Positions 49,064 to 64,000 are shown, counted from the first letter of the stretch. The stretch: 64,000 nucleotides of DNA from an uncultured Pirellulales bacterium (GCA_964444665.1 CAYUIE010000003.1:234990-298989); one strand, 5' to 3'. A program made the numbers and translations. The notes: a model not told the origin generated them from the sequence alone.

Positions 49064-49092
49064 TTGCAATTTGGCTGACGATGCAGTATAAT
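49064..49092 (+). promoter_or_regulatory. Sigma70-type promoter of ssrA
   Basis: TTGCAA-17 nt-TATAAT upstream of the tmRNA 5' end. Confidence 0.65.
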
Positions 49093-49119
49093 ATTGTCGG
49101 CGGGTTGAAAAGTAAATAC

Positions 49120-49472
49120 GGGGGCGAATGGCTTCGACCGGACAGGTTGACGGATAAGTGGCATGTCCAGGACGCCGGTTGGCCTGGCTAATCATCCGGC
49201 ACAAAAATTAATTGGCAACTACCAGTTGCGTATGGCTGCGTAACTAACGCGGCCCGCCCTGTCGAGTCTTTCCTGCGGGCACGGCAAGGGCGCCAAACAG
49301 CAGGATAGCCCAGCCGGTTTTTTCGGGCCGGTGGGGTGAAAATTATCCGAAATAGCCGACTCAGGGGCCTGTCGTTCGGCATCTGATAAGGCGAAACTCA
49401 ATCGACCGACTAAACATGTAGAGGCTTATCCTGAAGTGTCACGGGACGGGGGTTCGAATCCCCCCGCCTCCA
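49120..49472 (+). ncRNA. ssrA: tmRNA; tag (A)GNYQLRMAA*
   Basis: 5' GGGGGCGAATGGCTTCGAC; tag ORF 49214-49243; 3' GGGGGTTCGAATCCCCCCGCCTCCA T-arm/acceptor. Confidence 0.96.
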
Positions 49473-49498
49473 TTCTCTTCGTTTCTCCAATTTTTTAC

Positions 49499-49527
49499 TT
49501 GACAAAGACTTACATCACACCTATTCT
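49499..49527 (+). promoter_or_regulatory. Sigma70-type promoter of the island integrase
   Basis: TTGACA-17 nt-TATTCT immediately after the ssrA 3' end. Confidence 0.65.
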
Positions 49528-49565: not shown

Positions 49566-50657
49566 ATGGCATTTTTATTTGCACGGAAGCATCAGCGTGG
49601 CAAGACGTGGTATGTGGGTTACTACGTTGATGGCAAGCTCGTCCGCAAGAAGATTGGCCGAAGTAAAACACTGGCTGAGAAGGCCCGGGGGGACATTGAA
49701 GCCAGAATCGAGAGAGGTGAAGCAGGTCTTCTAAATAGAGACTACCCTATCCGTAGATTCTTCCAGGAGTATCTTGGACGGACAAAAACCAGGCACTCCG
49801 CATCCTACCACGACAGAAACAGAAGAGTCATAAAACAGTTCGAAAGATTTCTTGATGCCGAAAGACCATATCTGACCAGACTATCTCAACTAAAGCATGC
49901 CGTTATTGAAGCATACCAGCGGTTCAGATTGAATGAGACCGTCCCAAATAGCGGCAAACCCGTCAAAAAGAGAACCGTGAATATCGAGGTCAGCAGTCTT
50001 AAAACTTTCTTGAACAAAGCAGTAAAGTGGGATATGCTCTCCAGTAATCCCCTCGACAACGTGGAATACCTGAAAGAAAACGACAGCAAGAACATTCGAG
50101 CACTGACAGAAGAAGAAGTGCAAAAACTGCTTGAAGAAGCTAACGGCTGGTTCAGACCAGTACTTTTAACGGCACTTTACTCGGGCCTGAGAGAAGGGGA
50201 ATTAATAAATCTGGAGTGGGACGATGTTGACCTCAAACGTGGCGTGATACGAATACGCCGTAAGGTTGGCTGGGTACCCAAATCAAGCGGGAGAAGTATT
50301 CGTGAAAGGGACGTGGCCATCCCGAAGCAACTCGTGGAATTCCTGGAAAAGTACAAGAAACATCCGAGCTATGACGATGGCAAAGTGTTTCATAACAAGT
50401 TCGGTGATGAACTGAAGCCCGGGTTACGGAAGATCCTAATGAGGCTCACAAGAAGATGCGGCTTCCCCGAGGTTACGCAGTTCCATGCTCTAAGGCATAC
50501 ATACGCGACGCATCTGATTAAAGCGAGCAAGGATTTGCAGGTTGCAATGGACCAGTTAGGGCATGCTGATATTCGCACGACAATGCGGTACTCTGACATG
50601 ACCCTGGAGAGAAAGCGTAAAGCTGCAGAGAGGCTAAAATATGAAACAAGCAAGTGA
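49566..50657 (+). CDS. Tyrosine integrase (bacterial, arm-binding N-terminus)
   Basis: WYVGYYVDGKLVRK N-terminus; catalytic SGLREGE (R), FHALRHTYA (HxxR), LGHAD (H), TMRY (Y). Confidence 0.95.
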   Translation: MAFLFARKHQRGKTWYVGYYVDGKLVRKKIGRSKTLAEKARGDIEARIERGEAGLLNRDYPIRRFFQEYLGRTKTRHSASYHDRNRRVIKQFERFLDAERPYLTRLSQLKHAVIEAYQRFRLNETVPNSGKPVKKRTVNIEVSSLKTFLNKAVKWDMLSSNPLDNVEYLKENDSKNIRALTEEEVQKLLEEANGWFRPVLLTALYSGLREGELINLEWDDVDLKRGVIRIRRKVGWVPKSSGRSIRERDVAIPKQLVEFLEKYKKHPSYDDGKVFHNKFGDELKPGLRKILMRLTRRCGFPEVTQFHALRHTYATHLIKASKDLQVAMDQLGHADIRTTMRYSDMTLERKRKAAERLKYETSK

Positions 50658-50739: not shown

Positions 50740-52416
50740 ATGGCTAAAAACAAGTTAAACGATATTCCAAAAAAAGGTACACTTGAAATCAAAGTTGACA
50801 AGGCGGTGGTTAAGCACCTGAGCATCGGCCTATACCGCAACTATGCACTCGCCATAAAAGAATTGGTCTCTAACGCGTACGATGCAGGAGCAACAGAGGT
50901 GAAGATAAAACTGGATTTGAAGAGGAAGAGAATCGTAATTCGAGACAATGGGCGAGGCATGGACTACGATGACTTAGATAACGAATATCTCTGCATCGGC
51001 CTGCATAAAGCACCCTCCAGAAAGCCGGACGAATTGGGTCGAATGCGGATTGGCACTTTTGGGATTGGCTTTCTTGCACCTCTTCCATATTGCAAGCGAA
51101 TGACCGTAATTACTAAGAAACGGGGAAGCGACAGTGTCTTTCAGGCAACAATTAAGGCTACGAACTTCTTTAGCAAGGGCAATTGGGACATCAAAGACGA
51201 GAAAGTAGAATACGAAATCACAGACAGTGACCTTCCCCGAAAATCTGGTGAGACAATCGTGATTTTGGAGGAGATAGAGCCACAAATAGCGGAGGATTTA
51301 AATAGAAGCCGGAAGAAGGCAAAGGCCAAGATCGATCAGCTTGGTGGGTTCGATAAATTCAAATGGACTCTGTCTCAATACTGCCCGATCGAGTTTCCCC
51401 CTGAATGGAAGGAGTTGAGGAAATTCTTTGCTTATCCCGAAAGGATTCCGATGCGGCTGTGGCTTGATGGAAAAGAGCTTTTTAGAAATGTGCCTGAGGC
51501 GTGTGAGATTCTCGAAAAAGACGAGAAGGTCTTTGGGAATATTCACGTCAAATATGTGATATTGACACCTTACCACACTGTCAAGCCTGAGGAAGCAAGG
51601 GGTCTCCAGCTACGTCTCAGAGATGTGGCAATTGGATTCCCTCAGGATTTTGACGTCACAAAACTGGGAAGAGTCTTGGGAAAATTGAATCAGTTATGCG
51701 GAGAAGTCCACATTCTCAAAGGCCTAGACAATGCTCTAATGATTACAAGGGATACTTTTAACTATACCGAGGAAGTTTCCGAGCTGTACAAGTTCTTTAG
51801 AGAGAAGCTTACGAAGTGGAACAACTGGCTTGCAGACGAGGCAGATGCGACAAAGAAAGTGTATGAAGCCCTGCCCCCAGACAAAGCAGATGCAATAGCG
51901 GAGACTCTAAGGGAGGCAGATGTTGTTAAATTTCCAAAGGAGAGATTCCGCCTGCCTAAGTTTCCTATATCGAGCAGGCGCAAAGGTGAAATCTCCGCAC
52001 CTTCACAGCAACTAAAGGAGGCGCTCAAATCAAGACGAGGATTTTCTGTAGTATCTAGTAAGGCCAAGAGGACTAAAGACCAGCCTGCCATTGAGGTTGA
52101 TAAGAAGCGGAAATCCGTAACCGTTTACGACGAGCACCCTTCTTTTCTTGATTCTATTGAGGTAGAAAATAAGAAAATACTTGTGAGTTACGACAAATGG
52201 GAGGTCACTGGAACGCCCTATTCGATCTGCAAATACGACCGGAGACATAACAAGGCGGTGTTCAATACGGACCATCCACTCTTTAAAGCAAAAGTCAGTG
52301 ACAAAGTAGTGAAGCAGCTATCCTTGGGTATCTTGATATTGTTGGAAGGAACCAAGGAAAAAGAGCGAATTGTATCCAGATTCAATCGCATGCTTGAGGA
52401 TGTGTTCCAGGGGTAG
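50740..52416 (+). CDS. GHKL (Hsp90/MutL/MORC-like) ATPase
   Basis: KELVSNAYDA (N box), RDNGRGM (G1), RIGTFGIG (G2), followed by S5-like region. Confidence 0.88.
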   Translation: MAKNKLNDIPKKGTLEIKVDKAVVKHLSIGLYRNYALAIKELVSNAYDAGATEVKIKLDLKRKRIVIRDNGRGMDYDDLDNEYLCIGLHKAPSRKPDELGRMRIGTFGIGFLAPLPYCKRMTVITKKRGSDSVFQATIKATNFFSKGNWDIKDEKVEYEITDSDLPRKSGETIVILEEIEPQIAEDLNRSRKKAKAKIDQLGGFDKFKWTLSQYCPIEFPPEWKELRKFFAYPERIPMRLWLDGKELFRNVPEACEILEKDEKVFGNIHVKYVILTPYHTVKPEEARGLQLRLRDVAIGFPQDFDVTKLGRVLGKLNQLCGEVHILKGLDNALMITRDTFNYTEEVSELYKFFREKLTKWNNWLADEADATKKVYEALPPDKADAIAETLREADVVKFPKERFRLPKFPISSRRKGEISAPSQQLKEALKSRRGFSVVSSKAKRTKDQPAIEVDKKRKSVTVYDEHPSFLDSIEVENKKILVSYDKWEVTGTPYSICKYDRRHNKAVFNTDHPLFKAKVSDKVVKQLSLGILILLEGTKEKERIVSRFNRMLEDVFQG

Positions 52417-52422
52417 GGCTGA

Positions 52423-53151
52423 ATGGGTAACAGCAGTAGTTTGAAAGACGAGATGATCGAGAAATTATGGCTCCCAAAAGCTAAGGAGGCGTGGAGTATC
52501 ATTTGTCCCAGGCGGAAGAAACATGCTCGGATGTGTATGCTTACACTGTCGGATGGCCTTGACTTGGGCGAGGTGTCTAAGTTGGAGGAGGCGAATTTGA
52601 TTACGCGGGAAGACTCTGTGGGCTGGGTCTCTTCAATGAATAAGCGATGGAGGGTCGAAGCAGAAAATATTGGACTGGTCATTGACGGGCATGTATATGA
52701 TTCGTCATTTCTCACGCCATCTTGCCCACTGGTAAGCCATTTCCCTTTTGACATCCTCAATCTGGATTTTGGCTCCCAAGACGCCGACATGAATGAGGGA
52801 CGGACGGAAACCGAACTCATGGCGTTTGAAAAATTCATCGATCTTCAGGGACAAAATGGCAAACGCAAATTTCTCGTCATCTTCACTGTTCCAATCAACT
52901 CCTGCGATCTGGATTGCGCAAGGGTCGCGAGGGGATCTGACGCAACGAGAGTCAATGGCTGGGGCGGACTTAGATTGGACGAATACTCCGAGCATATTGC
53001 AGAACAAAGCGAAAAGACGGACTTCATCCAAGCTATTGCAGACAGTGTTATCCGGAAATATGGCTATAGTTGTAGTAACGGTTTAGTACCGCTATTATGT
53101 TCCGACTCTAACAGGATTCTGTTCTCCGTCGCAGGAGTCCTGGTGAGGTAG
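52423..53151 (+). CDS. Hypothetical protein, possibly degenerate SAM-methyltransferase-like fold
   Basis: Tightly packed in operon; MLTLSD and FPFDILNLDF segments; fold guess only. Confidence 0.55.
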   Translation: MGNSSSLKDEMIEKLWLPKAKEAWSIICPRRKKHARMCMLTLSDGLDLGEVSKLEEANLITREDSVGWVSSMNKRWRVEAENIGLVIDGHVYDSSFLTPSCPLVSHFPFDILNLDFGSQDADMNEGRTETELMAFEKFIDLQGQNGKRKFLVIFTVPINSCDLDCARVARGSDATRVNGWGGLRLDEYSEHIAEQSEKTDFIQAIADSVIRKYGYSCSNGLVPLLCSDSNRILFSVAGVLVR

Positions 53152-53154
53152 AAA

Positions 53155-53934
53155 ATGGCTAAGTTTAATATTGACAAATTGCCACCACTGGCGAGAAGCA
53201 TGTTTGAAAGCCAGTCGAAGTGGGCAGACAAAAACTGGAAAGATACCTTGAGATTGCGTGCGCGTGAAATCAATACTCTCTTGGATAACATAAGCATTTT
53301 CGATCTCTGGAAGAAAGTGCTTGGAGACGAATACGGTAAAATTGGGCAAGATTTGTTGCCTGAAATTTATATGGACGCCTATGTGTCAGTACATTTCGCT
53401 TGTATGGGTCTGTACAAGCAAAGCCATGTATGTTTGAGATCCGAACTAGAGAATGCTCTGCGTCTGGTCTACTTTGCAGTGCACCCTGTTGAGTATGGCT
53501 GGCGGCGGTCTGGGAAGGATTTCTTCAAAAAAAAGGATGTGTGGGCAGACGATTATCGCTATTTTCGGCAACTTGATGAGGTCCAGAAGTTTCAGCAGAT
53601 TTGTAAAAAGGATGGAAACAATGTTATTGTCTTTGACGCTGTAAGAAATCTTTATAGTAAACTATCTCAATATGTTCATACAGGGCCTACTACTTTTATA
53701 ACTACACCTAATCGCTTTGCTCCCAAATACAAAAAACCAGAATTCGGAAAATGGCTAAATGCCTTTAAGGAGACGCAGAAGTGTATAAATCTAATTCTTG
53801 TCTTGGGATTCACCGAAGATTTCAAGAAGTTGACCCTGCCTAAGAAGAAGGGAATCTTGAAAAAAACCGGTGACAAAAAAGTCAAGAAAGGTCTACGTAA
53901 ATCCATACCAGTAAAATTCGTGGGGGCTATCTGA
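53155..53934 (+). CDS. HEPN-like (DUF5677-type) helical protein
   Basis: LRSELE and LYSKLSQYVH motifs with helical character. Confidence 0.55.
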   Translation: MAKFNIDKLPPLARSMFESQSKWADKNWKDTLRLRAREINTLLDNISIFDLWKKVLGDEYGKIGQDLLPEIYMDAYVSVHFACMGLYKQSHVCLRSELENALRLVYFAVHPVEYGWRRSGKDFFKKKDVWADDYRYFRQLDEVQKFQQICKKDGNNVIVFDAVRNLYSKLSQYVHTGPTTFITTPNRFAPKYKKPEFGKWLNAFKETQKCINLILVLGFTEDFKKLTLPKKKGILKKTGDKKVKKGLRKSIPVKFVGAI

Positions 53935-53935
53935 T

Positions 53936-55009
53936 ATGATAATAAAGAAGGAAGATATCTTTAAGAAAGCTCCTTCGACAAGATATCAAGGTAGCAAGAG
54001 AAGGATTCTGCCTTGGCTTTACGATAATCTCAAAGACTTGGACTTCCACACAGTTTTTGATGGTTTTGGAGGAACTGGAAGTGTTAGTTATTTATTTAAG
54101 TTAATGGGTAAAAAAGTTACTTTCAATGATATATTAGCTTCGAATTATTTGGCTGGTGTAGCTTTGATTGAAAATGAGTCTGTCAAATTAGACCGAGATG
54201 ATGTTGATTTTATTTTACATGAAAATGGTTTTAATTATCCTAGTTTTATCGAGGACAATTTCAGGGGGACCTATTATTTGTCTCGGGAGAACAGATGGCT
54301 AGACGTTGTATCTCTTAACATCCGAATGCTTTCTCAAAAGTATAAAGGTGATATCTTAAGGAAAAAGCAGGCTTTAGCCAATCATATTTTATTTCAAGCT
54401 TGTTTATGTAAACGCCCCTTTAATCTTTTTCACAGAAAAAACTTATATTTGAGAACAGCACGAGTAAAAAGGAGTTTTGGAAATAAAAAAACATGGAACA
54501 CAAGTTTCCAAAGGTTGTTTCTAAAATTTAATGAAGAAATCTCTCAAAAGATTTTTTCTACTAAATTGAAGCATACCGCTCTTTGCGAAGATATTATGAA
54601 AGTCAGAAGGAAAAAGTTTGATCTTGTGTACTTAGATCCGCCGTATGCTAGGAAAAATGAAAGACATCCCAAAGATTATCATTCTTTATATCATTTTTTT
54701 GAAGGAATGCTTGATTATGATAATTGGGCGGAAAGAATTAATTGGAACACTAGAAATCATTGTTTAGTTCAGGAAAAGACAGGATGGGATAAGGATTCAA
54801 TCGAGGAGAATTTTGATAAATTATTTAGGAAATTTCAAAATTCGATTATAGTTGTTTCCTACGGTAGTCCAGGTGTCCCTTCCATTGATACAATCAGAAA
54901 GCTCCTGAATAAATACAAATCTGTGGTCTATATTAAACAAAGGCAGTATTGTTATAAATTGAACCGTAAAAATGGTGGTTTATACGAGGTTTTATTGATA
55001 GGCAAATAA
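53936..55009 (+). CDS. DNA adenine methyltransferase (Dam/D12 class)
   Basis: RYQGSK, FDGFGGTGSVS (motif I), FND, YLDPPY (motif IV). Confidence 0.92.
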   Translation: MIIKKEDIFKKAPSTRYQGSKRRILPWLYDNLKDLDFHTVFDGFGGTGSVSYLFKLMGKKVTFNDILASNYLAGVALIENESVKLDRDDVDFILHENGFNYPSFIEDNFRGTYYLSRENRWLDVVSLNIRMLSQKYKGDILRKKQALANHILFQACLCKRPFNLFHRKNLYLRTARVKRSFGNKKTWNTSFQRLFLKFNEEISQKIFSTKLKHTALCEDIMKVRRKKFDLVYLDPPYARKNERHPKDYHSLYHFFEGMLDYDNWAERINWNTRNHCLVQEKTGWDKDSIEENFDKLFRKFQNSIIVVSYGSPGVPSIDTIRKLLNKYKSVVYIKQRQYCYKLNRKNGGLYEVLLIGK

Positions 55010-55093: not shown

Positions 55094-55891
55094 TCACCAC
55101 TTCTCGCACATCCCCTGATATCCACAGTTTCCGCATAGATAGCCTTCGTTTGGATAATAGAAGCCGCCCCGTATTGCGTTTTCGACCTGTCCCGCAAGGC
55201 GGGAGAAACGATCGATGTCCGCCTGTGTCCTTTTCCCGTATAGCTGCTGGATCTTCGGCTGTTTGTTTCTTACCATTACGTCGAGACGGACACCTTTTTC
55301 TTCCTGGCCGTAGAGCGTGCGGAAGGCCAGCGAATAGGCAGTCAACTGAACATCCTTTTCTGCCGTGTTTTCCGGGAAGCTCCGTTTAGTCGTCTTGTGG
55401 TCGATGATGCACTGCTTATCGTCGATAAGGTCGATATATCCTTTAAGGGGAAGCTTGGTTCCAACCGTGTCAATGAGGAATTCCCGCTCGACTTCGACCG
55501 GCTGGACGCTTGGAGCAACCTGATCGAAGTATGCCTTCAGAAGATTCACGCCGTCATCTTTGAGCTTCCCAGGATTCTCTCCGTCTTTGAACTCCGTTTC
55601 CCCGACTTCACGTTCCCAGTACTCGCTGAAGAGTTCAGTAATATGAGAAACAATAATATCATGGCCGGTCTTTATTTTCTGCCTGTAGTTATCTTTAAGG
55701 GTATGATGAATCGTCCGGCCAAGAGTCAGGTCTCCTGTCGGCGGAGTCTTAATATCACATATGTATCGGAAAAAGTATGAAAGAGGGCAACGAATGTACA
55801 TCTTAAGCTGGGAGACGGACAGGTGGGGCCTTATCGTCGAGACGGTTCCCACCTGCCCATCTGAAGAGAATTCACTGTCGGCCTCTGTCAT
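55094..55891 (-). CDS. PD-(D/E)XK nuclease, RecB/AddB/Cas4-like with four-Cys cluster
   Basis: LSVSQLKMYIRCP, GRTIH, VERE, GYIDL, IIDHKT, QLTAY, C-terminal CGNCGYQGMC; start at MTEAD ATG 55891 after GGGGG. Confidence 0.88.
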   Translation of the reverse strand: MTEADSEFSSDGQVGTVSTIRPHLSVSQLKMYIRCPLSYFFRYICDIKTPPTGDLTLGRTIHHTLKDNYRQKIKTGHDIIVSHITELFSEYWEREVGETEFKDGENPGKLKDDGVNLLKAYFDQVAPSVQPVEVEREFLIDTVGTKLPLKGYIDLIDDKQCIIDHKTTKRSFPENTAEKDVQLTAYSLAFRTLYGQEEKGVRLDVMVRNKQPKIQQLYGKRTQADIDRFSRLAGQVENAIRGGFYYPNEGYLCGNCGYQGMCEKW

Positions 55892-56309
55892 TGTTCCCCC
55901 CGCCATTGTTATCCTGTGCCGGAGTCTCCGGTTCACCCTCGAAGACGTAGCGTTCAAAGAATCTCGCCGTCTCGATGGTCAGATCCTTCTTGGCATCAGG
56001 GTCAAGCTGAACGGGTGCAAGAATCTCGCTGGCGGATTTCAGGCACGACATCCTTGCGATCTGCCTGTCCTTGCCGTTTGGCCGGTATTGCGGCAGTTCG
56101 TTGCCGTTACCATTCACCGGCTCTATATCCGTCATGTTCTTGAAATTTCCGCTCTGCCTGAAGTCGTAGTCGATGGTTACGCCTTCCTGGAGCGTGTCAA
56201 AGTACTTGTCGTCCCAGACGCTGTATCTCTCTCCCCCGACCTGGACGGTCAGGTATTTCTGTCCCTTTCTGCTCTCGTTCTCCCAGACCTGCTCAATAGC
56301 CCCTCTCAT
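55872..56309 (-). CDS. Hypothetical, putative OB-fold ssDNA-binding protein of mobile elements
   Basis: Beta-rich N-terminus (KYLTVQVGGERYSVWD..FKNMTDI), RQIARMSCLKSA helix, acidic/Gly tail; GGAGGTG SD before ATG 56309. Confidence 0.55.
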   Translation of the reverse strand: MRGAIEQVWENESRKGQKYLTVQVGGERYSVWDDKYFDTLQEGVTIDYDFRQSGNFKNMTDIEPVNGNGNELPQYRPNGKDRQIARMSCLKSASEILAPVQLDPDAKKDLTIETARFFERYVFEGEPETPAQDNNGGGNNDRGRQ

Positions 56310-56328
56310 ATTACACCTCCACACTTCT

Positions 56329-56592
56329 TCAAGGCAGCTCCTCAACGGTTGTCCCGTCTTCAAGAATTGATTTCGGGCAGAAGCGGCGACACTGCTTCAC
56401 CTCCTTGGAAGACGGAATCTTCTTCAACACGGCACACCAGATGCCTCTGCCGTTTTCAATTCCGCAGATGCAACCTTCACACTTTGCCGGGTATGGATCC
56501 TCCGATTTGTAGCTGCCTGCCATTACAGGAGGTTTCTCAGGTCGGCATTTTAGGGTATCGGAGAAAGGGTATGCGATTCGTGCTGTTGCCAT
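56329..56592 (-). CDS. Small Cys-rich hypothetical protein
   Basis: CEGCIC..WC..CRRFC; co-oriented between the recombinase and the SSB-like gene. Confidence 0.5.
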   Translation of the reverse strand: MATARIAYPFSDTLKCRPEKPPVMAGSYKSEDPYPAKCEGCICGIENGRGIWCAVLKKIPSSKEVKQCRRFCPKSILEDGTTVEELP

Positions 56593-56608: not shown

Positions 56609-57808
56609 TTAATCGTCGGTTTCAGGGTTTGTGAGTTCCCCGATCTTCCGTGCGAGTATGTCCCGGAAGTCCTGGTCCTGAATTAGCCTGTCCATAATTT
56701 GGTCGGCTTTGTTCCGCTCAAGGTTCTTCTTGATGATTTCACTAGCCGTTTTCTGATCTAACACTGTGCCACAACGGCTGCAAAATTTGTTCGTTGATGC
56801 GTTTTCTACCTTGCACCGTGGACAAGCTTTTGGCCTTAACTTGCCCTCCGGTCTCCGGCTCGTGTCAGTAGCAATACCGTAGGTCTTTAGCAGAGCGTTG
56901 TCAACGTCACGCCCCGAAAGGTGAACGTATATGGATGGCATGTTTGAGCCCTGGGTCCATCCGAAGACTTCATTCATCTGTGCTTCGGTGAGATGGTTGG
57001 CCAGGTGTGTCGCCCTGCTGTGGCGAAATGAATGCGGGTTGATTCTCTTCTTAATTCCAGCTCGTTTCGCTGCTGCATCCAGTATGTCGCGTATCCTCTT
57101 ATAACTCAGACGGGACGCTCTGTAGTCTTTTGAAACCCACAGGTATTCCTGTGGTTGTGACTTCTTAGGGTGAATGTTAAGCCAGTCGGTCATATATGGA
57201 GCTGATGTGATTATTAGTAATCTTCTTGTTCCTGTCTTTCCTGATACGATGATTCGAAAACCATGAATGTGTGGAAGAACATGCTTTATTCTCATCGATG
57301 CAATTTCCCCTATTCTGCACCCGGTCTCGTAAAGAATCGATACGAGGGCCCTGTCCCTGGGATCATGGCATGCCTCAATTAGCCTGGAAATGTCCTCTTC
57401 CGTAAGAAGTTCATCAGGAAGCCTGTTGTTGCAGTTACGGCGGCTGAGCTTAATCCACGCCGTTTCCTGCGGATCTTCATTAACTCCCCGGAGCCAGCGA
57501 TAGAATTTCTTTATCGTAAGCTTGAGGTCCTGTTTTGTCCATTCGGAATAACCGGACTGCTGAATGGTTCTTACGAGCGTCTCAATGTCAGCTTTAGTGG
57601 CATCAGCGAAGTCCTTTTTAAAGAGAGAAGCGAGGCACTTGAGATGGCCGACATATTTCTCCACGCGTGGAATGCTCAGTCCCTCGGAGAAACAGTAATC
57701 GGAAAAATCCAGAATGGCACGTTTGTTTTTCGGAGAGAAGTTAGACTTCTTGATTAGCTCTATTCTTCTCTCCAGCTTACGTTCATAGTTATGGAAGCTA
57801 TCATCCAT
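56609..57808 (-). CDS. Tyrosine recombinase of archaeal type with C-terminal zinc ribbon
   Basis: YSEWTKQDLKLTIKKFYRWL, ETGCRIGE (R), GKTG (K), PHSFRHSRAT (HxxR), FGW, YVHLSGRDVD (Y), CPRC..N..KFCSRCG. Confidence 0.92.
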   Translation of the reverse strand: MDDSFHNYERKLERRIELIKKSNFSPKNKRAILDFSDYCFSEGLSIPRVEKYVGHLKCLASLFKKDFADATKADIETLVRTIQQSGYSEWTKQDLKLTIKKFYRWLRGVNEDPQETAWIKLSRRNCNNRLPDELLTEEDISRLIEACHDPRDRALVSILYETGCRIGEIASMRIKHVLPHIHGFRIIVSGKTGTRRLLIITSAPYMTDWLNIHPKKSQPQEYLWVSKDYRASRLSYKRIRDILDAAAKRAGIKKRINPHSFRHSRATHLANHLTEAQMNEVFGWTQGSNMPSIYVHLSGRDVDNALLKTYGIATDTSRRPEGKLRPKACPRCKVENASTNKFCSRCGTVLDQKTASEIIKKNLERNKADQIMDRLIQDQDFRDILARKIGELTNPETDD

Positions 57809-58153
57809 GAAGATTCACCCACGCCAGGCTTTTAAGACCTGACGTGGGCACCGTGCTTTTCACCCCACGCCGAGGATGGGTGTTCAACGAAAAGTACAAC
57901 GCCCACAGAATTCAGACCTTAAAGCCTATGAGAAATAGTTAACTGAAGAGATATTTAAGCCTTGCGCTCGTAAGAATATTGGTTAGAAATGCAGGATAGA
58001 ACAAACTTTACCCATTCCGGAGTTCTGATCGCCCGGTCATTCTCACTTTCCATGCTGAAATATAGGTGAATGCCTTTTTTCATCCTTCTTTCCACATGTT
58101 GCGCACCATGCCAGTAAAGCGCAAATGGGTGCACCGAAATCGCGTCAAATTCC

Positions 58154-58702
58154 CTATTCGGCTACCATCGTTGCCGATAGCTTCTTTCGCACCCATAACG
58201 AGAACCACATCGAGAAGACACATAAGGCAAATGCCGGAGGGAGTACGACGAGTGTGTTAGCTACAGGGTTATCACATAGGAGGAAGCCCTGTACAGGCTC
58301 AGGAGAGCGTGCTCTACTGACAAGATACTCACCACAGAATGCGTTGCTTACTGGACTGTAAGGATTTGAATAGAAAATCCGTATGACACTGTAGGAAGGG
58401 CTCTGTGAATGGAAGAGATTCAGTCCTACCGGATTGATTACCAATGTCACGATGGCAACGGAGGTAACAATGATTAGTAATGCCGCGACAAGGTAATCCT
58501 TGAATGTGGCACGAAGCAGAAAGGCAACCCCAAATGGAATGGCAATGCAGTTTATGGCAGGAAGGATCATGCTGAACTGAAGGTTTATAGCTCCGAGAAA
58601 GTCCAGAAGAAGGACGAACCACAGCAAACCCGCAAGCAATGAGAATACCCACCAGAGTAGAAAGACTTTGCCCACAGTTCGGACGTTATTGATATCCTTC
58701 AT
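58154..58702 (-). CDS. Hypothetical membrane protein (about 4 TM)
   Basis: Hydrophobic segments; divergent from ORF 58758. Confidence 0.6.
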   Translation of the reverse strand: MKDINNVRTVGKVFLLWWVFSLLAGLLWFVLLLDFLGAINLQFSMILPAINCIAIPFGVAFLLRATFKDYLVAALLIIVTSVAIVTLVINPVGLNLFHSQSPSYSVIRIFYSNPYSPVSNAFCGEYLVSRARSPEPVQGFLLCDNPVANTLVVLPPAFALCVFSMWFSLWVRKKLSATMVAE

Positions 58703-58726
58703 GTTTTAGTATATAATATTGACGAA

Positions 58727-58741
58727 TTATTAAGCTATCGG
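58727..58741 (-). promoter_or_regulatory. Archaeal BRE+TATA-like motif (possibly bidirectional TATA)
   Basis: Minus strand CCGATAG-CTTAATAA starting 39 nt before ATG 58702; plus strand GACGAA-TTATTAAG with TATA at -31..-24 of ATG 58758. Confidence 0.5.
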
Positions 58742-58757
58742 CGAAAGGGACAGGAAG

Positions 58758-60281
58758 ATGAAGACTGGTTTGTTTCTGGCGCTATGCGTGTTTCTTACAC
58801 TCTTATCTATCACATCAGCTTCCTCTGGCAAGGGATTCCCTCCAAAATGGATCGAAGGAGATGCATATGTGACTCAGGGAGAAGTGATTGACGGAAAACC
58901 AGTAAGTGGGAGAGGTGTCAAGGTTTCTATAACACGTTCTAAGGGAGCCGAATCCAGTGGACCATATCACTACACTGTAAGAATTCAGCCAGGCGATCCA
59001 TGGGAACATGGTACAGCAAGCGGAAGGACAGTATGGATTGAGGGACATGGTATCAGCCAGATCATCATCTCTCTGCCGGTCGATACGGCGGAAATTACAA
59101 ATACCAGAGTCTTGATAATCGGAAAGACCAGAGAACAAACAATGAGGGAGCTACAGGCAATTATGACAGAGGGGTTCAAGGGGTATGCCGAGGAACAAAT
59201 AAGGCAAGCAGCGGACAAGGCCAAGGATATTGTGTTTGGAATTCCAACCTCCTACATTGAGTTGGAAGAACCGTTTGAACTAAGTCCTCGAGATGGTCTC
59301 ATTATACTGAAGTGTGATTTCGAAGGAGCCAATGTCAGTCAGCGTTTTGACAAAATTGAAGAAGTTGTCGTTTCCTTCGATCTAACCTATAAGAAACCAA
59401 GCAAGCATTATATAGTAATAACTCCAGACATCAGAGCTACAGGCAACCTAGTTGATACATCATTACCTCTGAGGGGGAGCATAGGTGGTTACTACCTCAT
59501 TGAATACAGACAGGAGTTCATTCTAACACATAGTGGTGACTTTGAGAGTCGTCAAAACTCGGAAGGTCACCCGTATTTTCCGCTGACTGTGGGCAACAAA
59601 TGGACATACGATACGCGTGTGCAAATGGTGGTTCCGGGGTTCATGGAGAACCCCCCTAAAGAGGGTTCAACTACCTTTGCGGTCGCAGATAAGAAAAGGG
59701 TCAGCGACAAAGACTGCGTAGTAATTAGAGAGGGTATGAACGAAAGCTACTACTATATTGAAGACGGGTGTGTGATGTTAGCTGGTTCGCGCGGATGGGC
59801 CAGCATTGAGGAGTTTCTGTCACAGCAGGGTCTAAAAATCAAGTTCCCCACGAAGTATTTGGAGAATTCACTAACAACCGGTAAGTCATGGATAAGGGAA
59901 CATATTATTGGCTCTCATCCTGATGCTAGTTTAGTATCACGAGTTTTGTGTGTCGAAACTGTTACTGTCCCTGCAGGAACATTCCAAGACGCCATCAAGA
60001 TTAAAAATCGTCTTTCTGTGGGTAGTATGGGAGAGGTAGTTGTTATTGAATGGTTGGTAAAAGGTGTTGGAAGAGTAAAGGGCTCTATGTTAAGCCGCTT
60101 GGGGGGAAATAATAGTGGTGCTATGCCCGTGCAAGTTAAAATGGAATACGAACTTAGCTCATATGATATTGCTATGGGCGATCACAAAAGGAATAGTGAA
60201 GAGAAAGATAAACAGCAACACAAGGAAAAAAAGATTGGATGCAGTTTCACCGATGAACTTTCACCCGGCGGAGTAGGTTAG
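58758..60281 (+). CDS. Secreted hypothetical protein, C-terminal DUF3108/TapB-like beta domain
   Basis: Signal peptide MKTGLFLALCVFLTLLSITSA; YFPLTVGNKWTY ... ETVTVPAGTFQDAIKI pattern. Confidence 0.65.
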   Translation: MKTGLFLALCVFLTLLSITSASSGKGFPPKWIEGDAYVTQGEVIDGKPVSGRGVKVSITRSKGAESSGPYHYTVRIQPGDPWEHGTASGRTVWIEGHGISQIIISLPVDTAEITNTRVLIIGKTREQTMRELQAIMTEGFKGYAEEQIRQAADKAKDIVFGIPTSYIELEEPFELSPRDGLIILKCDFEGANVSQRFDKIEEVVVSFDLTYKKPSKHYIVITPDIRATGNLVDTSLPLRGSIGGYYLIEYRQEFILTHSGDFESRQNSEGHPYFPLTVGNKWTYDTRVQMVVPGFMENPPKEGSTTFAVADKKRVSDKDCVVIREGMNESYYYIEDGCVMLAGSRGWASIEEFLSQQGLKIKFPTKYLENSLTTGKSWIREHIIGSHPDASLVSRVLCVETVTVPAGTFQDAIKIKNRLSVGSMGEVVVIEWLVKGVGRVKGSMLSRLGGNNSGAMPVQVKMEYELSSYDIAMGDHKRNSEEKDKQQHKEKKIGCSFTDELSPGGVG

Positions 60282-60332
60282 GCGTTTGTCGCTAGTTGGA
60301 TCGAAAGCCACAGGTCTTGGGTACGAAGTGGA

Positions 60333-60701
60333 TTGTGTGGCACAAAAGATGAAAAGCCTTGTTGGCTTCTGGGATATCTCGAAAGAGGTCCTAAACTTGA
60401 GTTCCATCTTACTTTTTGCGGTAGCGGGGGGTCTCCAAAAGTCCATCTACAACCAAGAATATGGTCTATAACGTTTGAGGGAAAGAGATCGTACTGGACA
60501 GAAGTTTGGGATAGCCGTTCGAGACGACGCTATACAGTCGTTGTGGATGTTGATTTCTGTGGTCGTGACAGATTCGAAGTTAGAAGTGGGGAATACTGGG
60601 AGACCTTCAGGGTTGTTGGCGACAAGAATTTGGAAGTAGTAACTGAGAGCAAGACTCACATTAAGGCTCGATGGCATCTGCATATCGAACGGATGTATTA
60701 A
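60333..60701 (+). CDS. Possible hypothetical protein or degraded gene
   Basis: Fills the gap between convergent genes; beta-rich C-terminal half; no family recognised. Confidence 0.3.
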   Translation: MCGTKDEKPCWLLGYLERGPKLEFHLTFCGSGGSPKVHLQPRIWSITFEGKRSYWTEVWDSRSRRRYTVVVDVDFCGRDRFEVRSGEYWETFRVVGDKNLEVVTESKTHIKARWHLHIERMY

Positions 60702-60735
60702 CTTGGGACTTAGCATTTCAGAGACGTTGATAAGG

Positions 60736-61776
60736 TTAGCTTGAAACATTGAATTCTCTCACCTTTCCTTGTATCGCAGCCCGTTTCGCTCGTATTAAAC
60801 CTGTCTCAACAAGTTTGTTGCAGTAGTCTGAATAGGTGCGGATGGCTATAGGCTTAATTGCCTTCGATGTGCATGTCCTGAGATACAGCCGCCATAGGTC
60901 ACCCGACAGAATTCCCGGATTTCCTGCGATTAGCTCAAACAACAGCTTATGGTGGTCGGTCAGCTTGTGAAGGATGAACGCCTTTTTCAGGGTCTTCGAG
61001 TTGTTCCACGCCTGCTTAACATGGGAAGTCATAATTGGACCCTGGCCGTCTCTTTCAGCGATATAAACGGCATTTTTGAGGGTCTGTATGGCCACCCTCG
61101 CATCACCGGTTGCAAGCTGTGCTATGAGACGCAAAAGACCCTCGTCGCATGTTCCTGGTGTAAGAGCATATTGCGCCCGATGATTGAGAATGCTAAACAA
61201 CTCATCGCAAGAGTAATCCTTAAAGAATACCTGAGCAGGATTGAGCCTGGATTTCACTCTTTCCTCAAGGCCGAAATAAACGTGCTCGGAATTGCAAGCA
61301 CAGATTAGACCAACTGTCGGAAGGTCCGAAAGGTTATATAGAATTGAATGCCTTTCCTTCGGAGGTGGCTGATTTATTTCATCGAGAATGATGACCAAAC
61401 GCTCCCTGGAAATATGCCTTTTGAGTCTCTCCAGTTTGAATGAGGTGCTGAGCTTATCGGCGCCCAGCATACGCAACTCAATCGCAATACGCTCGAGCAC
61501 CGAGAAGAAGGTCGGATTCTCCCAGCAGTTAACGTATATGCCTTTGATCCCTGCTTCCTGATGAAGCTTTTTTAAGATAAGTCGGGCTATGACGGTCTTG
61601 CCAGTGCCGGGTTTTCCGTGAAGCCAAGTGTGTATGGGCTTTCTGCCTTCGGTAATCGGCCGAAGGCACAGTGCAATCTCCTTCAAGTGAGATTCACGCT
61701 TGAGAGTTTCCTCTGGAATATGGCTTTCGCTGAAGAAATCTGGGTCCAGCAGAATTGGTTGTCCTTCAGGAGGCAT
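60736..61776 (-). CDS. cdc6: Orc1/Cdc6-family replication initiator (archaeal type)
   Basis: FSESHIPE..LKRESH.KEIA.CL.P N-terminus; Walker A GKPGTGKT; YVNC; Walker B IILDEI; Arg finger RVKSRL; F..YS.DEL..IL..RA; sensor II GDARVAI; C-terminal winged helix. Confidence 0.9.
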   Translation of the reverse strand: MPPEGQPILLDPDFFSESHIPEETLKRESHLKEIALCLRPITEGRKPIHTWLHGKPGTGKTVIARLILKKLHQEAGIKGIYVNCWENPTFFSVLERIAIELRMLGADKLSTSFKLERLKRHISRERLVIILDEINQPPPKERHSILYNLSDLPTVGLICACNSEHVYFGLEERVKSRLNPAQVFFKDYSCDELFSILNHRAQYALTPGTCDEGLLRLIAQLATGDARVAIQTLKNAVYIAERDGQGPIMTSHVKQAWNNSKTLKKAFILHKLTDHHKLLFELIAGNPGILSGDLWRLYLRTCTSKAIKPIAIRTYSDYCNKLVETGLIRAKRAAIQGKVREFNVSS

Positions 61777-61799
61777 ATCTATGATTCGCGCTGCATGGG

Positions 61800-61814
61800 A
61801 ATATATCTTTCGGT
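61800..61814 (-). promoter_or_regulatory. Archaeal BRE+TATA-like motif upstream of orc1/cdc6
   Basis: ACCGAAAG-ATATATT; CCGAAAG begins 37 nt before ATG 61776; no SD. Confidence 0.6.
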
Positions 61815-61903
61815 ACTACACAGCTTGCGGTTTATGCGGATAAAGGTGGAGGTTTAGACAATAGTTCGGAATGTATAAACCGGGGATGATACGCTCTACT
61901 TTT

Positions 61904-62236
61904 CTACCGTGCGCGATATTTAAATATCCTCTCGTACTCTTTGTGTGAACACCAATCGAGAATTATGGCTATGATTTCTATGCCCTCCCGGCCCAGGGAA
62001 TACAGCAACCTCCATGCATTTGGAAGGTCATATTTGTACAGGTTATTTATGCTATACAGTTTTATATATCTCTTGGGTATCAATCGCTTTGGTATCGCAG
62101 TACCACAATCAGGTTTGAGCTTGATGTCCTCTATGGCCCGCAGAATGAATCTGTAAAGCTCTCTGAGTTCTTCGTTGGTTTTCAGTTTAAGAAAGTTCTT
62201 CTCTGCCTTTCGGTCAACGAAGTATACCTCCACCAT
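61904..62236 (-). CDS. RelE/ParE-superfamily toxin-like protein, archaeal style
   Basis: NLYKYDLPNAWRLLYSL...IILDWCSHKEYERIF; coupled to the upstream wHTH gene. Confidence 0.7.
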   Translation of the reverse strand: MVEVYFVDRKAEKNFLKLKTNEELRELYRFILRAIEDIKLKPDCGTAIPKRLIPKRYIKLYSINNLYKYDLPNAWRLLYSLGREGIEIIAIILDWCSHKEYERIFKYRAR

Positions 62237-62535
62237 TAAACCACCTTTAGATCAGGTCTCGATTTATACTCTCTGACCAGAAGAGGATTATATACCCAGA
62301 CTATCTTTCCCTCTCTGTCAGACATAACGAAGCCTTTCGCGTAGAAGTATTCGATTATCAGTTTAAGAGTGGGGTAGATGACTGTTCGTGGCAATGCTTT
62401 ATAGAGCTCGGTTATAGTACACGCTCCGAGCTGCTTTAGCGTCCCCTCTACCATCAGAACAGTGTCAAGTGTCGGAGAATGGGCATTTCTCCTCTTTTTT
62501 AATTCCATCGAACTGCATCTATCAAGCTTACTCAT
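62236..62535 (-). CDS. Small winged-helix protein, putative antitoxin/regulator, archaeal style
   Basis: HSPTLDTVLMVE..LK..G..T.TELYKALP...YPTL..I.EY...G......GKIVW.YNP; stop overlaps the RelE-like start. Confidence 0.65.
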   Translation of the reverse strand: MSKLDRCSSMELKKRRNAHSPTLDTVLMVEGTLKQLGACTITELYKALPRTVIYPTLKLIIEYFYAKGFVMSDREGKIVWVYNPLLVREYKSRPDLKVV

Positions 62536-62556
62536 GTATTTACATATAAATATTCA

Positions 62557-62575
62557 TACTTAAATATCTTTCGGT
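62557..62575 (-). promoter_or_regulatory. Archaeal BRE+TATA-like promoter
   Basis: ACCGAAAG-ATATTTAAGTA; TTTAAGTA at -29..-22 from ATG 62535; no SD. Confidence 0.65.
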
Positions 62576-63002
62576 GAAGCGAGGATGATAAATCGCCCAA
62601 AATAAATGGACTAGGACTGGAAACCATCAGGTTAAGGTAGTAGCTCTACTTTGGGAAGGCCAGATGGTTCAGAGTTCTTACGTAAAACGAACTTTTCGCT
62701 ATTCACAAGCCTCTTGGATCAGAAACTGAGAACATTCAAAGAAAAGCGGCCAACTATGAGCATCGGATCGACAGTCCGAATCGGGGCTTTATAAGTGTTT
62801 GTGAATAAATGGCTTGTGATGCTGACCGAAAGATAGCCGTAATGTAACTGAGGCCCAGACAAGCATAGTTGTCGCGCGCTTTGTTGCGTATCTCAGTGGC
62901 TGGCTTAATCCATTCTCGTTTATGCTCAAACGCGGGTTGGTTAGGCTGGTACTTTCAGGTTGGATTAAAGGCCTTCAACCATTTGTACTGACGGCATATA
63001 TT

Positions 63003-63205
63003 TTAACTGCCGTTTGGTAATTTGCTCAGGGTCCAATACGAATCAACTATCCTGATTGCCTCCGCGAACCCTTTATAATCAACAGGCTTTACTACATAAC
63101 CGGCAACGCTGAGCTTGAAGCTTTCGTCTATGTGCAACTCCTCATTGGAGGTGGTCAGCACCACAATAGGAATCTTTTTCAAGACATCATCAACCTTTAA
63201 AATTC
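63003..63205 (-). pseudogene. C-terminal half of a single-domain CheY/Rcp1-like response regulator, cut by IS66
   Basis: Manual translation ILKVDDVLKKIPIVVLTTSNEELHIDESFKLSVAGYVVKPVDYKGFAEAIRIVDSYWTLSKLPNGS*; homology ends at the IS terminus. Confidence 0.85.
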
Positions 63206-64000
63206 GTAAGCGTTCAGGCGGTTTTGGCTAAACAGCCTACAGTTTTTATTAACGATGGAGTTGGAATACCATCCAAATGACAACGACACGCATGATGCAA
63301 ATATTCAATAACACTTCGTCCTTGCAGGCGGCAAGTGGCGCAGGCGGTGAGGATCCGTTCCACATATCGTGCCCCGCGTTCGCTCTGCGTGCCGAAGCTG
63401 CCCTTACGCCACAAGACGGCCTGCCGCACCATCCGCTCGGCCAGATTATTGGTCGGCTCTACCCGCGCATCGTGCACGAATGTCCACAGATAATGCCGCT
63501 GGTTGAAAATGCGGCGGCATTGGCCCGACAAAGGCGAGCCACTATCGGCGCCTCGGGCCAGCAGCCTTTCCACCCGCTGCATCAGCGGCTCCATTCGACG
63601 TCGAAAAGTTTGCCAGCTAAGCGTTCCATCCCGCATCCGTTTGCGCAGGTGCAGGATTTGTTTGGACAAGGCAAACAATTTGCTCCCGATCCGGCCTATG
63701 GTCCCTTTCATCTCGCTGAAGGCTTGAAAATCTCGTTTCAGATGAGCCCAGCACAGTTGCCGCAGGCCGCCAAAGCAATTGTAGCCGCTCCAGCGGTCGC
63801 AATGCAGAATGCCGGCAAAGGTTCCCAGCAGTTTTTGAGCCGCTGTCTGCCCGCGTCCGGCCTGGATCAGAAAGACGGCCGCCGTGGTGCAACACAACGT
63901 CCAGAGCCAGCCTTTCTGCCGATTGCCGCGAGGCCAACCGGTTTCGTCAGCGTGGGCGATCGACTGCTGTTGCACATGTTCCAGCAGTTCTTGATGCGGG
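63206..64000 (-). mobile_element. IS66-family element, right end; continues beyond the window
   Basis: Terminal GTAAGCGTTCAG at 63206 (IS66 ends begin GTAA); visibly GC-richer DNA. Confidence 0.85.
63214..63975 (-). CDS. IS66 transposase TnpC, C-terminal part (5' truncated by the window)
   Basis: HADETGW, HCDRWSGY, QLCWAHLKRDF, EPTNNLAER, RKGSFGTQS. Confidence 0.93.
   Translation of the reverse strand: MQQQSIAHADETGWPRGNRQKGWLWTLCCTTAAVFLIQAGRGQTAAQKLLGTFAGILHCDRWSGYNCFGGLRQLCWAHLKRDFQAFSEMKGTIGRIGSKLFALSKQILHLRKRMRDGTLSWQTFRRRMEPLMQRVERLLARGADSGSPLSGQCRRIFNQRHYLWTFVHDARVEPTNNLAERMVRQAVLWRKGSFGTQSERGARYVERILTACATCRLQGRSVIEYLHHACRCHLDGIPTPSLIKTVGCLAKTA

Follow-up and report, generated by a model that had tools for sequence, protein, structure and literature searches.

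The element and its genes

We analyzed a window of 64,000 nucleotides (the whole stretch of DNA, positions 234990-298989 of contig CAYUIE010000003.1 in assembly GCA_964444665.1, from an uncultured Pirellulales bacterium; it is part of a JGI metagenome contig of 335,869 bp), which carries an integrative element with an Orc1/Cdc6 gene of archaeal type. The element lies in an island downstream of ssrA, the gene of the transfer-messenger RNA (tmRNA), in a Phycisphaerae-like planctomycete chromosome. Short sites that look like archaeal promoters precede several of its genes. They occur specifically at element genes, their position is fixed with respect to the start codon, they are conserved among relatives of the element, and their geometry is common to archaeal Orc1 genes. 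The conserved backbone consists of Orc1/Cdc6, a tyrosine integrase, the proteins p64 and p145, and a PD-(D/E)XK nuclease.

The Orc1/Cdc6-family AAA+ protein (346 aa, 60736-61776, minus strand) matches the Pfam family Cdc6_lid (2.9e-16) and AAA domains, contains the Walker A motif GKPGTGKT and has a match to Cdc6_C (1.3e-4) below the Pfam cut-off. The assignment to this family, with an AAA+ module, a Cdc6-type lid and a predicted C-terminal winged helix, is solid, because the lid match comes with full-length alignments, winged helix included, to Cdc6-1 of Sulfolobus (2QBY_A, 1e-32) and ORC1 of Aeropyrum (2V1U_A, 3e-31). Upstream of it, on the same strand, lies a cassette of two genes that overlap by one base. 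The first one codes for a winged-helix (wHTH) protein of 99 aa (62236-62535) with a weak match to Pfam Penicillinase_R, and the second for p110 (110 aa, 61904-62236). On the other side follow, all on the minus strand, the gene of a predicted membrane protein of 182 aa (58154-58702), a cargo gene present only in the window, the backbone tyrosine integrase (399 aa, 56609-57808; Pfam Phage_integrase, 3.6e-29) with a C-terminal zinc ribbon, and the backbone operon of p64 (56329-56523), p145 (55872-56309) and the PD-(D/E)XK or Cas4-like nuclease (55094-55891), which spans 55094-56523. Searches in PHROGs and PADLOC gave no function for p64, p145, p110 or the wHTH protein, and p110 had no match in Pfam either.

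The tmRNA gene (49120-49475) is a bacterial feature, and the NAD synthase (NadE) encoded in the window shares 66-67% identity with proteins that bear the labels Phycisphaerae, Sedimentisphaerales or Planctomycetota. By these two markers the host is a bacterium. It uses Shine-Dalgarno (SD) sequences widely, as SD-like motifs were found in 31 of 42 host open reading frames (ORFs).

Promoter-like sites upstream of the element genes

Four sites of similar build were found, all of them on the minus strand. Site 1 (62560-62575) is formed by ACCGAAAG, which resembles the B recognition element (BRE) of archaeal promoters, and the TATA-like ATATTTAA, 24 nt 5' of ATG 62535 of the wHTH gene. At site 2 (61799-61814) the same ACCGAAAG is followed by ATATATTC, 22 nt 5' of ATG 61776 of Orc1/Cdc6. 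Site 3 (58727-58741) reads CCGATAG plus CTTAATAA, 24 nt 5' of ATG 58702 of the 182-aa membrane protein, and site 4 (56546-56561) reads CCGATAC plus CCTAAAATG, with its CCGA at -38 from ATG 56523 of p64. Three of these had been noted in a first-pass annotation of the window, and its description agrees with our direct reading: the identical 12-mer ACCGAAAGATAT at 62575-62564 and 61814-61803, the variant CCGATAG-CTTAATAA at 58741-58727 (reading CCGATAGCTTAATAA), the CCGA at -39, -37 and -39 from ATGs 62535, 61776 and 58702, and the lack of an SD-like 4-mer between -18 and -4 in all three genes. The copy before p64 (CCGATAC-CCTAAAAT, 56561-56547) adds to them, and an SD-like 4-mer is missing there as well, so that none of the four window sites has one. 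The internal genes p110 (AAGGTGG, SD-like) and p145 (GGAGGTG) do carry such motifs. The backbone integrase has a looser version, a TATA-like box TCTTAAAAG (57829-57837, minus strand) placed 20 nt 5' of ATG 57808 and flanked by the inverted repeat CCCACGTC / GGCGTGGG.

Further upstream, the Orc1 and p64 sites are accompanied by a distal box. Before Orc1 it is part of TTTATCCGCATAAACCGCAAG (61823-61843, minus strand; core GCAyrAAyCGCA), located 12 nt upstream of CCGAAAG, and the versions GCATAAACCGCA at Orc1 (61826-61837) and GCACGAATCGCA at p64 (56572-56583), both on the minus strand, are alike, conserved in relatives and 10-12 nt upstream of CCGAnAn. They are candidate binding sites for a common regulator or initiator. 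Still further upstream of Orc1 lie conserved AT-rich blocks, GTTTATAC...TGTCTAAAC (61852-61880, minus strand), a possible origin or DNA unwinding element.

In order to estimate how specific the pattern is, we compared it with chance expectations. The shared 12-mer means little by itself, since the window contains 230 identical 12-mer pairs and shuffled versions about 150. However, among the 160 ORFs that start with ATG and reach 50 aa, the wHTH and Orc1 genes are the only pair of distinct starts that share a 12-mer within -42..-25; by a rough estimate, about 0.04 pairs of this kind would be expected in the window. The post hoc pattern CCGAWAGMTWWWWW matches only the three sites noted first, with 0.12 matches expected. 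A composite test, in which CCGAnAn had to lie at -40..-36 of an ATG opening an ORF of at least 50 aa and be followed by an AT-rich box, was applied to 471 kb, made up of the window and 38 non-redundant relatives. Twelve matches resulted, against 1.3 in shuffles, and 11 of them precede element genes (p64 six times, wHTH and Orc1 twice each, the 182-aa gene once). Host genes of the window had none. An equal frequency in front of host genes, the outcome that the first-pass annotation had named as speaking against its proposal, was therefore not observed.

Conservation of the sites

The wHTH cassette has been found only in the window and in the metagenome-assembled genome (MAG) L043 of Phycisphaerae, where the wHTH protein is 82% identical, and this pair allows a direct comparison. 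In the 40 nt directly 5' of the wHTH ATG, 35 positions are identical (88%), against 76-78% for the wHTH and p110 coding sequences and 55% for the segment from -200 to -41, a value near the alignment background. Conservation starts exactly at ACCGAAAG, and both copies have the 15-mer ACCGAAAGATATTTA equally far from the ATG. Since the promoter-like segment has diverged less than the coding sequence behind it and the flank before it, the site is under purifying selection in elements resident in planctomycetes and is not a decaying fossil.

The Orc1 gene, for which many more relatives are available, has a recurrent upstream layout: GTTTATAC, TGTTTAAAC, TTATCCGCAyAAACCGCA, an A-rich stretch, an AT-rich 8-mer, a spacer and the ATG. 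Across 38 distinct relatives, the most remote with 39% identity at the protein level, the AT-rich box is found at -31..-24. For most of those that reach 55% identity, the spacer between box and ATG measures 22-23 nt (range 20-25), and its sequence varies between subfamilies while its length holds. The distal box GCAyrAAyCGCA is conserved down to 39-41% identity, and the AT-rich blocks GTTTATAC...TGTCTAAAC appear in most relatives of at least 63%.

We compared these 38 upstream regions of the bacterial family with 60-61 from archaeal, mostly DPANN, Orc1 genes. The former reach an AT content of 0.87 or more at -29..-25, the latter one of 0.82 or more at -29..-22. A/T at -11 was found in 79% of the bacterial-family versus 66% of the archaeal regions, a pyrimidine at -1 in 87% versus 69%, and an SD-like motif in 8% versus 21%. 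For 35 of the 61 archaeal regions and 25 of the 38 from the bacterial family, the best match of the matrix TTTAAATCTT, which was trained on the archaeal regions, fell within -31..-27. The segment -38..-33 is purine/A-rich in the bacterial family, with low information (0.1-0.36 bit), and gave no clear signal in the archaeal set.

Similar patterns appear at the other backbone genes. In most of 12 p64 relatives the ATG is preceded by ctCCGAcAgCCTAAAATG and 22-23 nt, with variants in the rest, and none of the 12 has an SD-like motif. An AT-rich box lies 20-24 nt 5' of the integrase ATG in 11 of 12 relatives, flanked by inverted repeats, and three relatives from Micrarchaeota keep it at 22-23 nt.

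Distribution of the element

About 500 relatives of the 346-aa Orc1 were found in metagenomes. In species-representative genomes, those of at least 39% identity are nearly all bacterial, from some nine to ten phyla by label: Phycisphaerae and Pirellulales (Planctomycetota), Armatimonadota, Aminicenantes, Acidobacteriia, Eubacteriales, Dehalococcoidales, Zixibacteria, Ignavibacteria, Binatia and 'Deltaproteobacteria', to which the metagenome relatives add Latescibacterota. Identities within this family span 39 to 91%, and one closed Aminicenantes chromosome of 4.3 Mb carries two copies. Relatives of 35% identity or less are archaeal, mostly DPANN, in a list that is biased by the seed peptides of the scan. 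Viral contigs contained no relatives.

About 20 loci contain the backbone (Orc1, integrase, p64, p145 and nuclease) with variable defense cargo behind it, and relatives of the integrase adjoin those of Orc1 in more than 20. Among the genes found at the cargo position in relatives are those of TIR and BrxC-like proteins and of type I or IIG restriction-modification (R-M) systems. On the archaeal side, the integrases of three Micrarchaeota contigs share 40-44% identity with that of the window and lie within 8 kb of an Orc1 relative (30-33%), which suggests an archaeal counterpart of the Orc1-integrase pair. Neither p64 nor p145 nor the Cas4-like nuclease was detected in the archaeal loci. One Micrarchaeota MAG with a related Orc1-integrase pair (L096) and the two Aminicenantes copies (L047/L050) bear the same sample prefix, MFD04408, so that archaeal and bacterial carriers may share a habitat.

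Two contigs labelled Aenigmatarchaeota could not be verified as archaeal. The flanks of L054, with a DNA methylase, AbiEii and a DDE transposase, did not confirm an archaeal origin. In the case of L008/L044 a radical-SAM protein encoded in the flank has relatives labelled both archaeal and bacterial, and the RelA_SpoT and ABC transporter neighbors were uninformative.

Bacterial-type promoters in the same island

Sigma-70-type promoters are also present, all on the plus strand. The first-pass annotation had described clean TTGACA/TATAAT-type promoters at ssrA and at the integrase next to it; both are of sigma-70 type, reading TTGCAA-17-TATAAT at ssrA (49064-49092) and TTGACA-17-TATTCT at the integrase (49499-49527), and they serve as contrast cases (49064-49527). 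Bacterial-type promoters coexist with the archaeal-like sites inside the element itself, since the divergent gene of a 507-aa secreted protein (58758-60281) has a near-consensus one, TTGATA-17-TATAAT (58689-58717, 11 of 12 matches). For the same reason we set aside a shared bidirectional TATA box at 58727-58734 serving this gene and that of the 182-aa protein. A scan for -35/-10 pairs with hexamers 16-18 nt apart and at least nine of 12 matches recovered these three promoters as positive controls, and found no pair upstream of ATGs 62535, 61776, 58702, 57808 and 56523. CCGAAA was also considered as a -35 or extracytoplasmic-function (ECF) sigma element, and was discarded when, by eye, no consistent -10 partner appeared across the four sites.

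Other features of the island

Next to ssrA the island starts with a second tyrosine integrase (49566-50657, plus strand), followed by cargo on the same strand (50740-55009) in which a HATPase_c_3 protein that matches PADLOC models of type II restriction enzymes and a D12 adenine methylase enclose two ORFs without assigned function. This cargo looks like a restriction-modification unit. The 9-mer TCCATTCTC, which occurs at 49469-49477 (3' end of the tmRNA gene) and at 62909-62917, about 370 nt beyond the wHTH gene, may be the attachment (att) core of a composite island of 13.4 kb; it is the only candidate direct repeat that we found, and about 0.3 such matches are expected by chance. Beyond it, an IS66-family transposase splits a response-regulator gene (63003-64000 and further), and a gas-vesicle gvp cluster lies a short way past the end of the window.

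Some other elements accompany the backbone. The conserved CGTAAGAAnnCTGAACC (62666-62682, minus strand), which may belong to an origin or mark one end of the element, lies upstream of the GTTTATAC block in many relatives; the window and L043 have the wHTH-p110 cassette inserted between them. Seen by eye, the C-terminus of p110 is RelE/ParE-like, which would suggest a toxin-antitoxin module together with the wHTH protein. Upstream of the integrase start (ATG 57808), a stretch of about 60 nt that is conserved as a hairpin or inverted repeat (GGGCG..CTTTTCG / GAAAAG..TGCCC, 57843-57906, minus strand) keeps 8 of 18 predicted pairs through two-sided changes in 12 relatives, and could be an RNA element of the 5' untranslated region or a DNA site controlling recombination. 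Finally, a near-copy of the shared 12-mer, inverted and with one mismatch (ACCGAAAGATAG, 62825-62836, plus strand), has no gene start behind it.

Interpretation of the sites

The explanation that we favor, with a probability of roughly 0.55, is that the sites are the core promoters, or coinciding control sites, of the transcription units of a conserved integrative element, with an archaeal BRE/TATA leaderless architecture inherited with the Orc1 module and kept by selection. Each first gene has CCGAnAn, an AT-rich 8-mer, a spacer of 20-24 nt and an ATG free of an SD, and the internal genes have SDs. The architecture would have arrived together with the archaeal-type Orc1 module, and selection would have preserved it as the family radiated into many bacterial phyla. 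It would probably serve to start transcription at or beside the ATG and so permit SD-independent translation; leaderless mRNAs can be translated in all domains of life. The bacterial RNA polymerase might read the AT-rich box, perhaps with the aid of an element protein that binds CCGAnAn or the distal GCAyrAAyCGCA. Promoter function, leaderless transcripts and archaeal descent are what we infer from the pattern described above.

Several points weigh against this explanation. The words promoter and leaderless are taken from geometry alone, and the box at -31..-24, with spacers of 22-24 nt, would fit the position of a TATA box (about 26-27 nt from the start) only if transcription begins at the ATG. 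Neither TBP nor TFB is known from bacteria. The window boxes ATATATTC, ATATTTAA and CTTAATAA score below 8 bits with the archaeal-trained matrix, and the matrix itself is unspecific: used as a window-wide test it gave 130 matches of at least 8 bits and did not discriminate host from island, for which we abandoned it in that role. A loose criterion of an AT-rich box at a gap of 20-25 was likewise rejected as too unspecific alone (13 of 42 host ORFs fit). Site 3 is the weakest of the sites: the 182-aa gene behind it has no relative in any fetched locus, and its divergent neighbor has a near-consensus sigma-70 promoter. The integrase may come from a leadered transcript, as SD-like GGTG precedes it in 7 of 12 relatives. 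The inverted copy of the 12-mer and the conserved distal boxes suggest a specific binding protein, and the exact 11-mer, judging from the inverted copy with no gene, may also be a protein-binding site. Counts over the relatives are not independent, these being related by phylogeny, and the host labels of the carrier MAGs are the depositors' own. Short transcript-like contigs were searched for 5' ends, and all of them had long upstream DNA and were uninformative.

It is possible, if clearly the less probable case, that we are looking at ordinary bacterial promoters with operators. The AT-rich box would then be a sigma-70 -10 element with transcription starting some 7 nt downstream and an SD-less leader of 15-17 nt, CCGAnAn and the distal box would bind an element regulator (the wHTH protein, or Orc1 by way of its winged helix) that represses or stands in for the -35 contact, and the likeness to BRE/TATA would be convergent or historical. 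Host and family are bacterial and hence bacterial RNA polymerase must be the enzyme; the Orc1 site of the window contains TATATT and the p64 box is TAAAAT, both good -10 hexamers (the p64 box also counts against the explanation we favor); by position the distal box would overlap the place of a -35; and the identical 12-mer at two promoters with a third, inverted, geneless copy looks like an operator; inverted repeats also flank the integrase box. TANNNT, which holds the two best-conserved positions of a -10 hexamer (A at position 2, T at position 6), occurs in the box region of 8 of 12 p64 relatives, but it is not enriched at Orc1 (14 of 38, 37% against 48% expected) and is absent from all 12 integrase boxes, and a -35 element is lacking. 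Besides, such promoters would not explain why the box stays 22-23 nt from the ATG in subfamilies whose spacers are unrelated, why -1 is a pyrimidine (87%), why SDs are absent in a host that mostly uses them, and why archaeal Orc1 genes have the same geometry. The site next to Orc1 might alternatively be part of the origin of the element, an idea that we consider improbable, in which the CCGCA-type boxes would be initiator sites similar to origin recognition boxes (ORB) and the AT-rich blocks, TATA-like box included, would be unwinding elements. Archaeal orc1/cdc6 genes commonly adjoin origins (PMC1868953), about 110-200 nt upstream of Orc1 are conserved in blocks (GTTTATAC, TGTTTAAAC, TTATCCGCAyAAACCGCA), and paired TTCCGCGGAA boxes occupy the same place at Orc1 genes of Micrarchaeota. 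However, CCGAnAn with box and fixed spacer also precedes p64 and wHTH, where no origin is expected, the looser form with box and spacer only precedes the integrase, and an unwinding element need not keep a fixed distance to an ATG. Origin and promoter may overlap, and the two ideas are compatible.

Regarding the history of the module, the first-pass annotation had taken the archaeal BRE/TATA signature as a sign that it was acquired recently and that its genes might be silent or read differently by the bacterial polymerase. The pattern and the ancestry stand, given the CGAAA-type element, the box at 22-24 nt and the same box at DPANN Orc1 genes. Recency and silence do not, because the family is spread across bacteria with a conserved architecture and the site is under purifying selection: the architecture is maintained in 38 relatives down to 39% identity, nearly all named genomes being bacterial, and the upstream regions are conserved in the family, with 88% identity at the wHTH promoter against 76-78% in coding sequence. 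Fossil TBP/TFB promoters in a recent import from an archaeon, silent or misread and free of selection, would account for the BRE/TATA-like sequences, the leaderless geometry and the archaeal-type Orc1/Cdc6. We regard them as highly improbable, as the family occupies nine to ten bacterial phyla by label with Orc1 identities of 39 to 91% and the same upstream architecture, and the promoter is more conserved than coding DNA between two copies resident in planctomycetes. In addition, the module does not depart from the host range in GC content (0.42-0.47), and no close archaeal donor was found, archaeal relatives being at 35% or less with the exception of the two unverified 'Aenigmatarchaeota' contigs. 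A bolder scenario, rather unlikely in our opinion, is a trans-domain element that moves between DPANN-type archaea and many bacterial phyla, relies on Orc1/Cdc6 without archaeal MCM, and keeps TBP/TFB-type promoters and leaderless mRNAs for expression in both domains, or else through an element factor that aids bacterial RNA polymerase.

Signals for promoters and translation starts are usually seen as a barrier to the expression of archaeal genes in bacteria. Here, a bacterial element family appears to have kept an archaeal-type initiator and SD-free, archaeal-style starts through a radiation over multiple phyla. In the literature that we covered, which is incomplete, we came across neither bacterial elements that encode Orc1/Cdc6 nor a family of bacterial elements that conserves gene starts of archaeal style. 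If transcription starts map to the ATGs, the element would offer a natural, domain-neutral way of expression (AT-rich box plus leaderless mRNA) and a handle on Orc1/Cdc6 in a bacterial cell. If they map elsewhere, the sites would be a warning that look-alikes of BRE/TATA can be bacterial control sites. Either way, the island is no longer to be read as a recent archaeal import.

Comparison with known systems

There are known leaderless genes in bacteria (Actinobacteria, Deinococcus; GeneMarkS-2 group C), with which the element shares first genes that lack an SD and start with ATG. In that class, however, 6-8 nt separate the -10 box from the start codon (PMC6028130). We considered this geometry as a general rule and rejected it, as TANNNT ending at -10..-6 was found in 26% of the Orc1 relatives (12% expected), in one subfamily only, and by reading in none of the window sites.

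The likeness to the BRE/TATA leaderless promoters of Haloferax volcanii, Halobacterium salinarum and Sulfolobus is closer in its details. A CGAAA-type element abuts an AT-rich box located 22-24 nt from the start codon, first genes lack an SD and internal genes have one, a pyrimidine is preferred at -1 and -11 tends to A/T. CGAAA has been proposed as the haloarchaeal BRE (PMC4983044), and in the window a purine/A-rich element stands directly upstream of the box, as CCGAAAG at two sites and as CCGATAG and CCGATAC at the other two. Leaderless archaeal starts have their box at about 26 nt from the gene start, 22-24 in H. salinarum (PMC6028130), and the element presents the combination that defines the archaeal leaderless group D of GeneMarkS-2 in the same study: SD-less first genes, a box at about 22-26 nt and SDs on internal genes. 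The differences are the bacterial host and the boxes of the window, which match TATA more weakly than the TTTAAA type of most relatives.

As a whole, the element can be compared with the Orc1/Cdc6-encoding integrated elements of archaea, such as the thaumarchaeal NitAQ6f-E1 (PMC6563490). An integrase, cargo genes, a small size and a single replication protein, Orc1/Cdc6, are common to both. The family described here resides instead in bacterial chromosomes of many phyla, adds p64, p145 and the Cas4-like nuclease to the backbone, and carries defense genes of bacterial type (R-M, TIR, BREX-like). In this last respect it is close to the bacterial integrative islands with defense cargo at ssrA or tRNA genes, for example pipolins (PMC11551731), which likewise combine a tyrosine integrase, a self-encoded replication protein and variable defense genes beside a conserved backbone; the island of the window also adjoins ssrA. 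Unlike them, no tRNA or tmRNA gene was present within the fetched flanks of 27 related loci and the backbone promoters have no sigma-70 -35/-10 pairs, and, instead of a polymerase or a bacterial Rep, this element carries an initiator of archaeal/eukaryotic type.

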